A model generated the notes under the pieces. That model was not told the origin of the DNA, made no database searches, and saw nothing but the letters and a program-made list of their open reading frames with translations. The position numbers and the translations under genes are program-made. Below, one piece after another: positions 5,877-57,998 of a stretch of 64,000 nucleotides of DNA; positions within the stretch are counted from its first letter, which is position 1, and every line of letters begins with the position of its first letter. The stretch is from NCBI RefSeq assembly GCF_001677475.2, contig NZ_CP015229.1. One strand, 5' to 3'. This DNA comes from Escherichia coli. Its GTDB lineage: Bacteria; Pseudomonadota; Gammaproteobacteria; Enterobacterales; Enterobacteriaceae.

Positions 5877-6379
5877 GGGCGCGCCTCCCATTGATTACGG
5901 CGGAAAGCAGTGTGAGTCAGGCTGGTTTCGGCCTCATGGAATGCTTCAATGCAGCTCTCGTAGTACCGCATTGTGCGCAGACTTAACCCAAGCTGAAGCA
6001 TCATCAGACCATCAAGAGTTATGTAATAACCACGCAAAGAATCGCCATAAAGGTGATAAGTGCCGGGTATGAAATTACGGGTGAAAAACTCGCGCGAGCA
6101 GTTCAGATACTCGATTTTGTCGACGATATTCTGGTGCATGCGCTTGAAGTGGCAGGCAACATGCAGAGAGAAAATAACGGCCTTGCCGTTGACGGTCTCA
6201 ATTTTGAGGAATGGGTGAGTAGTGGTGGTAGTCATGGTGACAGCCCCGGTAGTCAGTTTGTTAGAAAACTCACCACCAAGGCTTTCCACGACCTTATAGG
6301 TGGTGAGACGTACAGGGGTGGAAATACCGGAGACTACCGAACCCGGCCCGACCGAAGTCGGCCCTGTACGCCCCACCAT
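5873..6379 (-). CDS. Hypothetical protein (start uncertain; C-terminal part of a long open frame)
   Basis: Frame is open from 7174 to 5873 but its upstream part overlaps the well-supported FinO-like gene; only the portion downstream of that gene is called. The stop overlaps the next ATG (ATGA); no convincing RBS was found at ATG 6379 or GTG 6472. Confidence 0.3.
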   Translation of the reverse strand: MVGRTGPTSVGPGSVVSGISTPVRLTTYKVVESLGGEFSNKLTTGAVTMTTTTTHPFLKIETVNGKAVIFSLHVACHFKRMHQNIVDKIEYLNCSREFFTRNFIPGTYHLYGDSLRGYYITLDGLMMLQLGLSLRTMRYYESCIEAFHEAETSLTHTAFRRNQWEARP

Positions 6380-6533
6380 AATTTGGGCGTAGCAATGCTC
6401 ATGACACGAAAAAACCGCATGAGCGCGGTTATGCTCAGTAATCAATTTCGGGTTTCCACGCCCGGCATCCACTTTACAAGATGCCTGAATAGTGTAACGT
6501 CCCGAAATTAAGGAATCAATGTTTTGATAAAAT

Positions 6534-45269: not shown

Positions 45270-45360
45270 TCGGGCGGATAAGGCGTTTTTGCCTCATCCG
45301 CCGTTCTGTGCACAATGCCTGATGCGACGCTGGCGCGTCTTATCATGCCTACAAACCACA
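45270..45360. repeat. REP/BIME elements
   Basis: CGGGCGGATAAGGCG...CATCCGCC and GCCTGATGCGACGCTGGCGCGTCTTATCATGCCTAC, classic REP palindromes. Confidence 0.55.
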
Positions 45361-54005: not shown

Positions 54006-54079
54006 GAAAGACGCGCATTTGTTATCATCATCCCTGAATTCAGAGATGAAATTTTGGCCACTCACGAGTGGCCTTTTTC
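54006..54079 (+). ncRNA. micA: MicA (SraD) small regulatory RNA
   Basis: GAAAGACGCGCATTTGTTATCATCATCCCTGAATTCAGAGATGAAATTTTGGCCACTCACGAGTGGCCTTTTT in the luxS-gshA intergenic region, ending in a terminator hairpin plus T-run. Confidence 0.75.
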
Positions 54080-56707: not shown

Positions 56708-56917
56708 GGTCTTCTCGCAAGTCGAAAAATATGACGCTACTTTAGCGTAATTGCTTGATTTTGTCGCTGATGGCGAAGGAGAAGAAAATTCAGGAAATAG
56801 ATAAAGTAGTTATTTAGAAATGAGATATTTTTGAAGGAAATTTGTGGGAGAAGATGGTGCCTGCGGTTAGTACTGCTACCTCTTCGATACCTTCATTGCT
56901 GAAGATTACGGAGAATA

Positions 56918-56994
56918 TGGTGCATCCGGGAGGATTCGAACCTCCGACCGCTCGGTTCGTAGCCGAGTACTCTATCCAGCTGAGCTACGGATGC
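56918..56994 (-). tRNA. argQ: tRNA-Arg (anticodon ACG)
   Basis: Reverse complement is GCATCCGTAGCTCAGCTGGATAGAGTACTCGGCTACGAACCGAGCGGTCGGAGGTTCGAATCCTCCCGGATGCACCA; name assigned by position in the array. Confidence 0.85.
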
Positions 56995-57096
56995 ATCGGG
57001 AAAACTTATTTTACTGCTGATATTGATACCGCTACTAAAGCCATATCAAATAAGAAAATCCATCTTAACCATCATCACTGATGATTACGGAGAATA

Positions 57097-57173
57097 TGGT
57101 GCATCCGGGAGGATTCGAACCTCCGACCGCTCGGTTCGTAGCCGAGTACTCTATCCAGCTGAGCTACGGATGC
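57097..57173 (-). tRNA. argZ: tRNA-Arg (anticodon ACG)
   Basis: Identical 77-nt tRNA-Arg sequence; second copy. Confidence 0.85.
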
Positions 57174-57235
57174 ATCGGGAAATTTATTTTACTGCTGATA
57201 TTGATACCGCTACTAAAGCCATATCAAGTAAGAGA

Positions 57236-57312
57236 TGGTGCATCCGGGAGGATTCGAACCTCCGACCGCTCGGTTCGTAGCCGAGTACTCTATCCAGCTG
57301 AGCTACGGATGC
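57236..57312 (-). tRNA. argY: tRNA-Arg (anticodon ACG)
   Basis: Identical 77-nt tRNA-Arg sequence; third copy. Confidence 0.85.
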
Positions 57313-57376
57313 ATCGGGAAACTTACTTTACTGCAGATTTTTTGATACCGCTACTAAAGCCGTATCAAGTAAGAGA

Positions 57377-57395
57377 TGGTGCATCCGGGAGGATT
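57377..57395 (-). other. Truncated tRNA-Arg fragment (3'-terminal ~19 nt only)
   Basis: TGGTGCATCCGGGAGGATT matches the 3' end of the tRNA-Arg copies, then diverges into unrelated sequence. Confidence 0.4.
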
Positions 57396-57511
57396 ACTCG
57401 CCTTGCGGCTCGCCCTTCGGGCCGTTGCTAAAGCAACGTTATCCTTCCTGGTGCTTGCGGCTAGTACCGCCACCTCTTCCACATCTTCATCGCTGAAGAT
57501 TACGGATAATA

Positions 57512-57588
57512 TGGTGCATCCGGGAGGATTCGAACCTCCGACCGCTCGGTTCGTAGCCGAGTACTCTATCCAGCTGAGCTACGGATGC
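57512..57588 (-). tRNA. argV: tRNA-Arg (anticodon ACG)
   Basis: Identical 77-nt tRNA-Arg sequence; fourth copy, 3 nt from serV. Confidence 0.85.
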
Positions 57589-57591
57589 AAA

Positions 57592-57684
57592 TGGCGGTGA
57601 GGCGGGGATTCGAACCCCGGATGCAGCTTTTGACCGCATACTCCCTTAGCAGGGGAGCGCCTTCAGCCTCTCGGCCACCTCACC
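57592..57684 (-). tRNA. serV: tRNA-Ser (anticodon GCU)
   Basis: Reverse complement is GGTGAGGTGGCCGAGAGGCTGAAGGCGCTCCCCTGCTAAGGGAGTATGCGGTCAAAAGCTGCATCCGGGGTTCGAATCCCCGCCTCACCGCCA, with a long variable arm. Confidence 0.85.
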
Positions 57685-57998
57685 ACACGCCTCTTACGAG
57701 TGCTTCGAAGAACTTGTTTATCGCTCATCGTCGCTGCGTGGCGCACATATTACTTTCTGAGACTTATAAGTCAAACAATTTTTCCCACACTTTTATCGTT
57801 TGCACACTTCACGCTCAATTAGTCTGTAAAAACGTCAAAAAGAGTGTTTTATCAACAGAAAAACGGAGGTCTGTCAGATAGCAGTAATGCAAAAAAATGG
57901 AGACTTAAGTTGAATGAACGGGAGTAAAGCGAAAAGACAATGGAGTGAAGAAGAAATTTGAGGGTGCGTCTCACCGATAAAGATGAGACGCGGAAAGA

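Follow-up and report, generated by a model that had tools for sequence, protein, structure and literature searches.

Organization of the serV–tRNA-Arg array

The window analyzed here, by which we mean the whole 64,000-nucleotide stretch of Escherichia coli DNA, contains an array of five tRNA genes between csrA and yqaB, in the order serV-argV-argY-argZ-argQ and all on the minus strand. The first gene of the operon, serV (57592..57684), encodes tRNA-Ser(GCU); ARAGORN calls it as tRNA-Ser(GCT), it scores 56.8 bits against the Rfam tRNA model, and it agrees with the annotation of K-12 and strain 7/2. It is followed by four tRNA-Arg(ACG) genes that are identical to one another over 77/77 nt and that are equivalent, in transcription order, to argV (57512..57588; ARAGORN and Rfam tRNA), argY (57236..57312; ARAGORN), argZ (57097..57173; ARAGORN) and argQ (56918..56994; ARAGORN). 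A promoter-like site, TTGACT-16-TAATAT, lies upstream of serV (57747..57774, minus strand), and a terminator-like hairpin with a T-run lies between the array and yqaB (56734..56748, minus strand); both are candidates identified by consensus match.

The spacers following argV, argY and argZ are 199, 62 and 102 nt long, respectively. They are related to each other: the motif GATACCGCTACTAAAGCC has exactly three copies, at 57025, 57203 and 57344, where the chance expectation is 0. To this extent our results agree with a preliminary description of the locus, which had noted serV and four identical tRNA-Arg(ACG) genes with related spacers that have a motif in common. The 199-nt spacer consists of a 135-nt element immediately downstream of argV (57377..57511, minus strand) and a short spacer of 64 nt (57313..57376, minus strand) that forms the 5' leader of the next tRNA and is identical to the entire argV-argY spacer of strains that do not have the element. 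The 62-nt spacer (57174..57235, minus strand) is also of the short type. The 102-nt spacer after argZ (56995..57096, minus strand) combines a part resembling the short spacer with a remnant of approximately 40 nt, at about 57057-57096, from the 5' head of a second copy of the element. One hairpin is retained in this remnant by means of a compensatory change (CUUCA-gcaa-UGAAG to CAUCA-guga-UGAUG). Strain 7/2, O157:H7 and CEC08123 also have this 102-nt allele, whereas K-12 has a full-length copy (raZ) at this site. Downstream of argQ there is a truncated copy, equivalent to raQ of K-12, of which only the 5' 63 nt are present (56855..56917, minus strand). Compared to K-12 it has lost 70 nt, comprising the core and the copy of the tRNA end, with the gap lying between two GCACCA direct repeats, and the distance from the array to the yqaB ATG codon is 210 nt in the window versus 280 nt in K-12.

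Identity of the argV-argY spacer element

The sequence TGGTGCATCCGGGAGGATT has five mismatch-free copies (chance expectation 0), four of which are the 3' ends of the tRNA-Arg genes and one of which is an orphan, at 57377-57395 on the minus strand. As the preliminary description had recognized, the orphan is an exact copy of the tRNA-Arg 3' end. It corresponds to tRNA positions 58-76 (AAUCCUCCCGGAUGCACCA) and is exactly 19 nt long, the identity to the tRNA being broken at 57396 (A, not C). The same description regarded the fragment as being followed by unrelated sequence, which is incorrect in two respects. Because the genes are on the minus strand, 57396-57511 precedes the fragment in transcription and comes directly after argV; and it is not unrelated, but homologous to elements located beside other tRNA genes, as both the RtT model and an HMM of non-Arg elements indicate.

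[quoted passage not shown] There are 22 TLRs in K-12, and the supplement entry 'argY/Z/Q, raQ/Z/V' covers the serV-Arg array; the supplement also includes a strain from which all 22 are absent (PMC8144298). In the window, the first base of the TLR (57511) is the base right after the CCA of argV, whose gene end is 57512, on the same strand and inside the array of serV and four Arg genes, and the 19-nt copy forms its 3' terminus. In K-12, the RtT match terminates in a repeat of 18-19 nt from the tRNA 3' end at all the TLR loci that we checked; beside its tRNA genes for Tyr, Lys, Ser and Pro, a body of about 80-120 nt containing a homologous core is followed by 18-19 nt of the 3' end of the upstream gene.

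The Rfam RtT model aligned over its whole length (1-130/130) to 57377-57506, with the core aligned at high posterior probability, and scored 29.3 bits (E = 0.0039) in one run and 34.6 bits (E = 2e-5) in a second, in both cases below the gathering score of 45 bits for RtT (RF00391), so there is no match at the gathering threshold. By Rfam's own threshold the window TLR is RtT-like and not a member of RtT. The K-12 copies behave similarly–raZ scores 31.0 bits, raV scores 29.2 bits, and raQ is undetected–while the Tyr copies score 133-137 bits. An nhmmer search using an HMM made from 14 non-Arg K-12 TLRs (Tyr, Pro, Lys and Ser) had its sole significant match in the 64 kb at 57447-57378 (minus strand; E = 4.8e-13). 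Compared to the K-12-type raV, which occupies the equivalent position, the window TLR has 92.6% identity, and the K-12 argV-argY spacer can be aligned over its whole length. Among all the copies in 5,426 complete genomes, the closest one to the window allele has at most 96.3% identity.

We conclude that the element at 57377-57511 is almost certainly a TLR, and that the 19-nt fragment is very probably its built-in 3' terminus, the TLR being the ortholog of raV and a divergent relative of RtT/RttR. It is an old, conserved spacer element of tRNA operons that has already been catalogued: TLRs, in the form of RtT or RttR of the tyrT operon, were reportedly described by Egan and Landy in 1978, and raV, raZ and raQ are said to be included, under their EcoGene names, in the TLR catalogue of Rudd in 1999. 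The proper label for the odd fragment is therefore a raV-like TLR, and not a scar of recombination or integration. Because its RtT score is below the gathering threshold, the element is left unannotated by standard pipelines, and Arg-type TLRs in general, which fall below this threshold and have no RefSeq annotation, are prone to repeated rediscovery as anomalies.

Predicted structure of the element

The TLR has a conserved core of three small hairpins (57400..57438, minus strand), consisting of near-invariant alignment columns that align to the RtT consensus. The hairpins are CGUUGC-UUUA-GCAACG (57423-57438), GCCC-GAA-GGGC (57412-57422) and GCC-GCAA-GGC (57400-57409), the last of which has a pair that alternates between C-G (23 sequences) and G-C (21 sequences). 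The variable 5' half (57457..57500, minus strand) contains two further hairpins, at 57483-57500 (with a GNRA loop) and 57457-57470, in which 4/7 and 4/5 base pairs, respectively, show changes on both sides. Between these parts lies an internal segment, GCACCAGGAAGGAU (57441..57454, minus strand; its 57441-57448 stretch is GGGAGGAU), that is complementary to the tRNA-derived end according to both the minimum free energy (MFE) fold and duplex prediction. The 19-nt copy at 57377..57395 is thus predicted to be also the 3' strand of a helix that closes the core, leaving NCCA as a 3' overhang. In K-12 raV the internal segment is GCACCAGGGAGGAU, whose first 12 nt agree at 10 positions with the tRNA acceptor 5' strand plus the T-stem 5' strand.

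The MFE of the window TLR is -52.8 kcal/mol (z = -3.4). In an alignment of 47 distinct sequences, 85.5% of cells were paired in the structure named above, compared to 33-50% with slid partners, a percentage that is inflated relative to these controls since the tested structure was taken from the window sequence. The covariation score was 0.178, whereas controls reached at most 0.081 and none of 500 shuffles attained the observed value; both-sided, compensatory changes are present in three hairpins. The internal segment and the tRNA-derived end are paired in 96.5% of cells in the same 47 sequences. Because the 3' strand of the closing helix is invariant within the Arg family, this helix has no covariation within the family. 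Of 18 single-sequence folds, 16 pair the tRNA-derived end with a segment that is specific to the tRNA type–GCACCAGGGAGGAU in Arg, UGCGGGGAAGGAU in Tyr, CGUGUAGGAU in Lys, GGGGGGAU in Ser and GAGGAU in Pro. Duplex energies calculated for TLR bodies with each of the five tRNA ends do not form a clean diagonal, since any G-rich segment can pair with a C-rich end. RNAalifold, applied to a MAFFT alignment, recovered only some of the helices and placed the 3' end in a local AUCC/GGAU hairpin, which may be an alternative conformation of the tRNA-derived end.

Conservation and distribution

Full-length copies are found in nearly all E. coli: 5294 of 5426 complete genomes (97.6%) have at least one, and in about 2% no full-length copy was found. 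The matches are at chromosomal sites in 24,948 of 24,951 places. Salmonella and the genomes of 16 Enterobacterales species, from about 12 genera, have Arg-type TLRs at the orthologous locus, although the cross-species set was retrieved by an exact pattern (part of the core plus the tRNA end), so that the conservation of those 31 nt is partly ascertained. Conservation with compensatory changes spans three families of Enterobacterales. In Pantoea, tandem TLRs occur inside a single spacer. The preliminary description had named, as a result that would count against its reading, that the fragment and its flank are invariant core sequence of the species with no similarity to mobile elements; we found no such similarity in collections of phages, plasmids and viral contigs, and the family is invariant in E. 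coli, but the particular spacer varies.

Gain and loss of TLRs in the array

A comparison of the array across strains, which had been suggested in the preliminary description, revealed 3-4 Arg genes and 1-4 TLRs among 11 E. coli arrays (a sample, not a census, of the 5,426 E. coli arrays). K-12 has three full TLRs, after argV, argZ and argQ, and the window has one full TLR after argV, the head remnant of about 40 nt after argZ, and the truncated 63-nt copy after argQ. Individual TLR copies are dispensable, because E. coli has both TLR-containing and TLR-free spacers and two copies in the window are degraded. At the argV-argY spacer, the difference between the occupied and empty alleles is exactly 116+19 nt, with the 19-nt direct repeat at its boundaries. 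The array of another strain has a 22-nt deletion.

The 19-nt direct repeats, together with the repeated modules of tRNA plus spacer, are substrates for slippage and unequal recombination. These processes explain why strains have gained and lost TLRs and Arg genes, and why two TLR copies of the window are degraded. The proposal that unequal recombination has occurred here was therefore correct insofar as recombination shapes the array, as seen in the 11 arrays and in the exact 116+19 nt alleles, but not in taking the fragment to be its footprint, since the fragment belongs to a conserved TLR family: it is a substrate of the recombination that reshapes the array, and not a scar of it. The array clearly illustrates how a direct repeat of 18-19 nt drives the gain and loss of modules.

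Alternative origins of the fragment

A scar of unequal or illegitimate recombination would be a tRNA copy that lacks its 5' 58 nt and is joined to unrelated DNA. The array is evidently active, with 3-4 Arg genes, 1-4 TLRs, an indel of exactly 135 nt with the 19-nt repeat at its edges, the 70-nt deletion between GCACCA repeats in the window, the 22-nt deletion elsewhere and the tandem TLRs of Pantoea, all of which fit such an origin. But the supposedly unrelated DNA has homologs in the TLR bodies found beside tRNA genes for Tyr, Lys, Ser and Pro, all the families break at one and the same point (tRNA position 58/59), and the tRNA-specific ends exclude the other TLR families being recent copies of the Arg spacer. 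Conservation with compensatory changes in three Enterobacterales families also makes a local accident in one array insufficient, and we consider this origin very unlikely. We view a decayed pseudogene, that is, a fifth tRNA-Arg copy with mutated D and anticodon arms, as marginally less probable again. Its last 19 nt are those of the tRNA, and GCACCAGGGAGG (in the K-12 raV form) matches the acceptor 5' and T-stem 5' strands (GCAUCCG+GGAGG) at 10 of 12 positions, but the approximately 45 nt between the tRNA-like strands are the TLR core that non-Arg TLRs have in common, rather than remnants of D and anticodon arms, and a near-invariant 3' end and core would be unexpected in a pseudogene whose neighbours diverge. 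Neither ARAGORN nor the Rfam tRNA model found a tRNA at the TLR, and both report just the five real genes in the region. A 42-codon ORF on the minus strand (57354-57482), which has an ATG start in K-12 raV by our reading of the sequence, raises the question of a small basic peptide like tpr, which is annotated inside the tyrT TLR. We rejected it as coding because it is not conserved: the start codon is missing in raZ, raQ and most orthologs, variation of 1-2 nt in the length of hairpin 5 between orthologs shifts the frame, the substitutions preserve base pairs without any codon pattern, and the Tpr sequence is unrelated. A peptide is, in our judgement, hardly credible and the least probable of the alternatives.

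The origin in a mobile element is improbable too, though somewhat less so than the others. The fragment could be an attR-like remnant of an element (a phage, an island or a miniature element) that integrated into the tRNA-Arg 3' end and later decayed or was imprecisely excised or, more broadly, TLRs could derive from an ancient element that targeted tRNA 3' ends. The geometry is as expected for this–an intact tRNA, foreign DNA, and a second copy, in direct orientation, of the tRNA 3' end from the T-loop onwards–and homologous cores beside different tRNA types imply some past dispersal. A 19-nt direct repeat of the tRNA 3' end is, however, common to TLRs and to elements bounded by att sites, so it does not discriminate between them. 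The insert is only 116 nt long, without an integrase or other conserved ORF, its orthologous position is kept across genera, and 24,948 of the 24,951 E. coli places are chromosomal. The preliminary description had proposed looking for a mobile-element match to the sequence beside the fragment. Our blastn searches (distant mode) of 50,697 phage and 72,556 plasmid records yielded no genuine mobile-element match to the TLR; the matches were to draft chromosome contigs of Salmonella, to 'plasmids' of 0.1-5 Mb that resemble misfiled chromosomes, and to an UNVERIFIED_ORG 'Salmonella phage' contig that contains a proK-like tRNA plus an RtT element, i.e. host DNA. Among 40 loci in viral contigs with a 16-mer from the core, nhmmer identified real TLRs in only three, all of them in host DNA. 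Two of the three are the host valU-valX-valY-lysV operon. The third site has a tRNA-Lys gene and three tandem TLRs at the contig end, in the host flank of a Mu-like prophage (MuA, MuB and a repressor); Mu-like prophages transpose randomly. A recent integration as the source of the fragment is already contradicted by these results, and the suggestion of an integration or excision footprint gives way to a catalogued TLR at a conserved orthologous locus.

Possible processing and role

Returning to the element as a TLR, its position makes it likely to be co-transcribed with the tRNAs. As its end copies the tRNA end (the stem, the ACCA and a similar U-rich trailer), its 3' end may be set by the enzymes of tRNA 3' maturation. 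Processing would then release a stable RNA of approximately 135 nt, in line with the RttR annotation. In K-12, rttR is annotated as ending at the last base of its 19-nt copy of tRNA-Tyr, and RrB ends 3 nt past its copy of the 5S rRNA 3' end (PMC8144298). Discrete processed RNAs have been shown for RttR and RrB only, and by analogy to these we give even odds to the window TLR being a processed, structured RNA.

In the published view, TLRs are without known function (PMC8144298), and any specific function that we might propose for the window TLR is unlikely to be the right one. We tentatively suggest, as a possibility that falls well short of being probable, that Arg-type TLRs, and TLRs generally, are selected structured RNAs that mimic the acceptor/T-arm of tRNA, are matured and stabilized by the tRNA 3'-end machinery, and act in cis or in trans. 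In such a mimic, the T-stem and acceptor strand of the tRNA itself would supply the 3' strand of the helix that closes the three-hairpin core, with NCCA left as an overhang; the idea of a minihelix mimic draws on the position-specific partners in the MFE folds. In cis, it could act in operon processing or 3'-end formation, and in trans it could be a decoy or sponge for factors that recognize tRNA 3' ends. The compensatory changes in three hairpins, the type-matched partners in five families and the conservation are compatible with such mimicry but are not proof of it. No function has been assigned to TLRs since 1978, and their conservation and covariation are concrete grounds for examining whether they are processed RNAs that end like tRNAs.

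Comparison with known systems

An arrangement similar to that of the window is seen at att sites in tRNA genes, such as the tRNA 3' pseudogenes that flank prophages in K-12, where an intact tRNA is followed, some way downstream, by a direct repeat of its 3' end that begins in or near the T-loop. The window differs from these in having only 116 nt between the repeats, no mobility genes, no phage or plasmid similarity, and membership of a conserved chromosomal family.

RrA, RrB and RrF, located downstream of 5S rRNA in rrnA, rrnB and rrnD, belong to the same repeat class but are linked to 5S rRNA and not to a tRNA. They are transcribed with their stable-RNA operon, and copy the 3' end of the upstream gene at their own end, a copy that has been proposed to guide processing by RNase E (PMC8144298). 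They bind Hfq and CsrA, whereas 19 tRNA-linked TLRs, including the Arg ones, scored <0.01 in a predictor of CsrA binders (PMC8144298).

RtT/RttR of tyrT-tyrV (RF00391) resembles the window TLR in lying after a tRNA gene, in its homologous core (AACGUUGC..GCAACGGCCCGAAGGGCGAG..CGAGUAAUCC), in ending with 19 nt of the upstream tRNA, and in having a closing helix that uses the tRNA-derived strand. In the Arg TLR, however, the complementary strand is located centrally and not close to the 5' end, the 5' half is unrelated, and there is no tpr-like ORF. An RtT/RttR RNA of the tyrT-tyrV operon was reportedly described by Bosl and Kersten in 1991, and we know of no report of an RNA product from the Arg version. 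The closest relatives of the window TLR are raV, raZ and raQ of the K-12 serV-argVYZQ operon, with which it has in common the locus, the site after an Arg(ACG) gene, the length of approximately 134 nt, the core and the 19-nt end.

The serV-tRNA-Arg array and its spacers

Five tRNA genes lie within 56918-57684, every one on the minus strand: a tRNA-Ser(GCU) gene at 57592-57684, and tRNA-Arg(ACG) genes at 57512-57588, 57236-57312, 57097-57173 and 56918-56994, all four of which are identical over their 77 nt. The array is flanked by csrA and alaS upstream and by yqaB and yqaA downstream, and is the csrA / serV-argV-argY-argZ-argQ / yqaB locus of E. coli; the alaS-recX-recA DNA beside it shares 99.2% identity with the best-matching E. 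coli genomes, which places the window in E. coli or something very closely related. In transcription order the spacers are argV-199 nt-argY-62 nt-argZ-102 nt-argQ-210 nt-yqaB ATG. The 19-mer TGGTGCATCCGGGAGGATT occurs five times without mismatch, at the four tRNA 3' ends and once as an orphan (57377-57395) in the 199-nt argV-argY spacer, 116 nt past the argV CCA and followed by 64 nt to argY. This exact orphan, the tRNA calls, the 77-nt identity, and three occurrences of the motif GATACCGCTACTAAAGCC where none is expected confirm what the preliminary description observed: four identical tRNA-Arg genes with serV, a shared spacer motif, and a 19-nt tRNA fragment.

Elsewhere in the window, a C4 antisense RNA (6296-6383, minus strand; 81.9 bits in Rfam) adjoins isrK (6408-6484, minus strand; 53.4 bits). 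We take these to be RNAs from the immunity regions of P1/P7/P4-type phages; near 6.3 kb there is therefore probably a prophage or its remnant. The sRNA MicA (54006-54077, plus strand; 83.9 bits), a naRNA4/CssrE match (45272-45349, plus strand; 69.7 bits) and a lone tRNA with anticodon CAT (22961-23036, minus strand) look like ordinary chromosomal features.

The spacer element is a tRNA-linked repeat

Directly after argV lies a 135-nt element (57377-57511, minus strand) that ends in the orphan 19-mer. The same element sits in the same spacer of K-12, where two further copies follow argZ and argQ, each K-12 copy consisting of about 115 nt and then 18-19 nt of the tRNA-Arg 3' end. Repeats of this class are called tRNA-linked repeats (TLRs) in a paper on their 5S-linked members (PMC8144298), which traces the first sighting to Egan and Landy (1978) and cites Rudd (1999) for a count of 22 TLRs at ten K-12 loci. 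These are itemised in its supplementary strain table, which includes 'argY/Z/Q, raQ/Z/V'. Because raQ, raZ and raV are catalogued for the K-12 Arg array, the window element is the ortholog of raV, and was already known.

We re-examined this identity apart from the literature, by RtT matches, recurrence of tRNA ends and a hidden Markov model (HMM). The Rfam family RtT (RF00391) aligns to 57377-57506 (minus strand) end to end. A search of 1.9 kb scored it at 29.3 bits (E = 0.0039) and a search confined to the spacer at 34.6 bits (E = 2e-5); neither reaches the gathering score of 45, and the best label is therefore 'RtT-like, a TLR of the Arg type'. Among the K-12 TLR loci examined, there are four RtT matches after tyrT and tyrV (133-137 bits), one after proK (101 bits), five in the lysT-valT-lysW-valZ-lysYZQ cluster (47-60 bits), one after lysV (47 bits), and three at serX (46, 46 and 36 bits). 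The Arg copies score weakest (raZ 31.0, raV 29.2, raQ undetected). The local tRNA's final 18-19 nt reappear at each such locus, coinciding with the 3' end of the RtT match. An HMM built from 14 non-Arg TLRs has one significant match in the 64-kb window, at 57447-57378 (minus strand; E = 4.8e-13), which extends into the sequence beside the fragment that had been called unrelated. What TLRs have in common is a core, AACGUUGC-loop-GCAACGGCCCGAAGGGCGAG-hairpin-CGAGU(A/C)AUCC, and past AUCC the sequence changes over to that of the local tRNA. All the defining features of TLRs that could be tested are present in the window element, whose catalogued counterpart is raV.

Near the K-12 serW TLR locus, between clpA and serW (L009, 754-781), there is a single CRISPR-DR4 repeat match (50.1 bits), presumably the degenerate CRISPR remnant already known from the clpA-infA interval.

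Conservation

At least one place covering at least 80% of the element is present in 5294 of 5426 E. coli genomes, and no RefSeq annotation lies under the element among the matches listed. A pattern search in which each species was represented by a single genome found 16 loci, from Enterobacter, Phytobacter, Escherichia, Brenneria, Pluralibacter, Citrobacter, Klebsiella, Pantoea, Huaxiibacter, Lelliottia and one more member of the Enterobacteriaceae. The serV-Arg(ACG) array is present at 15 of them, the Huaxiibacter contig stopping within the array, short of serV. Salmonella enterica subsp. houtenae carries an orthologous locus, csrA-serV-Arg x3-yqaB, where a TLR follows the second of the Arg genes. 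From these loci and E. coli we extracted 52 Arg-type TLRs. In a 47-sequence alignment the 5' half is variable and the 3' half nearly invariant, a conservation that is partly ascertained because 31 nt were dictated by the search pattern in one or more copies at every locus; invariant columns extend beyond the pattern, for example GGAUAACGUUGC and GCAAC. At four comparison loci (L019, L027, L029 and L030) ARAGORN calls of antisense 'tRNA-Arg(tcg)' overlap genuine tRNA-Arg(ACG) genes that lie on the other strand, and are prediction artefacts.

Predicted RNA structure

The window element has a minimum free energy (MFE) of -52.8 kcal/mol (z = -3.4) and its predicted fold consists of a pair of 5' hairpins followed by a 3' domain, in which GCACCAGGAAGGAU (57441-57454) pairs with the tRNA-derived AUCCUCCCGGAUGC, enclosing three small hairpins. 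On the 47 sequences, 85.5% of cells are paired, compared to 33-50% with slid partners, and the covariation score is 0.178, compared to at most 0.081 when slid and reached by none of 500 shuffles; the tested structure derives from one aligned sequence, which favours it over the slid controls. Both-side changes occur in four of the seven pairs of hairpin 1 (57483-57500), whose register varies between subfamilies, in four of the five pairs of hairpin 2 (57457-57470; for example G-C 24, A-U 15, G-U 5, U-A 2), and in hairpin 5 of the core (57400-57409; C-G 23, G-C 21).

For the closing helix the share of paired cells is 96.5%; within the Arg family this helix cannot covary, because the tRNA sequence fixes its 3' strand. 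Comparison among TLR families lends it support at the level of modelled folds: in 16 of 18 MFE folds, each of a single sequence, a tRNA-type-specific upstream segment ending in GGAU pairs with tRNA-derived nucleotides 59-72, this segment being GCACCAGGGAGGAU (Arg), UGCGGGGAAGGAU (Tyr), CGUG(U/A)AGGAU (Lys), GGGGGGAU (Ser) or GAGGAU (Pro). In these 16 folds the final 1-12 nt are unpaired, always including the terminal A of the NCCA end. The prediction is of a closing stem that has the tRNA-identical end as its 3' strand and carries an ACCA overhang. Duplex energies arranged as a matrix gave a diagonal only in part. The exception among the 18 folds is the rtlysQ/rlV type, alone in having an MFE fold that is not closed by the tRNA-derived end. 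This Lys-linked type (K-12 L005, 1684-1809, and L008, 860-985) has a different 5' half containing GAUUCGAACCUGCAGCAGGUUUGAG, a palindrome resembling the tRNA-Lys T-arm. The same closing helix is already present in the Rfam RtT consensus structure and so is not a new feature. Over its first 12 nt the Arg internal strand agrees with the tRNA acceptor 5' strand plus T-stem 5' strand at 10 positions, so that the modelled 3' domain looks like an acceptor/T-arm minihelix with the T-loop replaced by a three-hairpin core.

Recombination in the array and the mobile-element reading

The preliminary description read the 19-nt fragment as a footprint either of unequal recombination or of integration or excision at a tRNA 3' end. 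The array comparison across strains that it proposed bears out part of the first reading. In 11 parsed E. coli arrays the Arg genes number 3-4 and the TLRs 1-4. Six of the arrays have an argV-argY spacer of 197-199 nt (window, 7/2, K-12, EC2648-R1, DSM 103246, MEI008), and in the other five it measures 64 nt (O157:H7, CEC08123, APEC O1, M1/5, CRECJHTL34). The last 64 nt of the window's 199-nt spacer are identical to the 64-nt allele, so what separates the two forms is exactly one 116-nt body and one 19-nt repeat, a 135-nt indel. The window's tail TLR after the last Arg gene (56855-56917, minus strand) is truncated: relative to K-12 it lacks 70 nt between two GCACCA direct repeats, a loss that removes the conserved core and the tRNA-end copy and is common to the window and strain 7/2 but absent from the other nine arrays. 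Past the tail copy the array's 18-19-nt repeat is lengthened to about 27 nt, because the trailer UCUUCUCC/UAUUCUCC restarts at that point. In the 102-nt spacer just ~40 nt of a TLR head are left (57057-57096, minus strand), the hairpin of which is preserved by a compensatory change (CUUCA-gcaa-UGAAG to CAUCA-guga-UGAUG, the loop still GNRA); O157:H7 and CEC08123 have the same allele. Recombination and slippage between the array's repeats are therefore real, but the 19-mer did not arise from a local accident: it is a constant piece of a conserved element that acts as a recombination substrate. In the DNA, it is through the 18-19-nt repeat that TLRs are lost, gained and tandemly amplified.

As for integration or excision, the suggested BLAST search against mobile elements gave no genuine match. 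Four of 50,697 phage records matched the 135-nt element by blastn. Three are Salmonella draft chromosome contigs, and the fourth is a 7.3-kb record, 'UNVERIFIED_ORG: Salmonella phage S.Kent 1-2-1' (OR850888.1), in which a tRNA and then an RtT element of 95.7 bits (1268-1513) lie in what looks like host chromosomal DNA. The 17 plasmid-collection matches were all typed non-mobilizable; they include 4.8-5.4 Mb records (PLSDB) that are chromosomes, and the others, mostly 0.1-1.3 Mb, also look misfiled. Scanning 2.9 million viral contigs with a core 16-mer gave 40 loci, three of which are real TLRs by nhmmer. Two of these are the host valU-valX-valY-lysV operon. The third, a tRNA-Lys with three tandem TLRs at the extreme contig end, adjoins a Mu-like prophage (MuA, MuB, repressor); because phages of this kind insert at random sites, it is host flank. 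Across 5,426 complete E. coli genomes, all but three of the 24,951 matching places (24,948) lie on chromosomes. We thus found no link between TLRs and mobile DNA in the phage, plasmid or viral-contig collections or in the complete E. coli genomes. For the window element, an att-site remnant and a tRNA pseudogene were both rejected.

Tandem TLRs occur in other genomes. Spacers 3 and 4 of the Pantoea ananatis Arg array (L027) have two Arg-type TLRs in tandem within a single spacer, resembling the 178-bp tandem repeats of tyrT, so the unit can amplify. In the isolate genome of the third viral-contig locus (L062, 12216-12712, minus strand), the three tandem Lys-type units behind the tRNA-Lys measure 153 nt apiece, and each starts with an intrinsic-terminator-like hairpin (AAGCGCCUAAGGCGCUUUUUUU); this stretch adjoins the repressor end of a Mu-like prophage.

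A possible processed RNA

The element lies within a tRNA operon, on the transcribed strand, and has a conserved core and compensatory changes. Single TLR copies are dispensable, yet at least one is nearly always retained. We suggest that the Arg TLR is co-transcribed with the tRNAs, that the RNase P and RNase E cuts freeing the flanking tRNAs would also release it, and that it may then be trimmed to an RNA of about 135 nt whose tRNA-like end would resist 3' exonucleases. Conservation and covariation make this hypothesis, a processed RNA with a tRNA-like end, worth direct testing. In known relatives, the annotated end of the K-12 rttR RNA is exactly the last base of its 19-nt tRNA-Tyr copy, and the end of RrB lies 3 nt past its copy of the 5S rRNA 3' end, a repeat for which RNase E recognition was proposed by the authors (PMC8144298).
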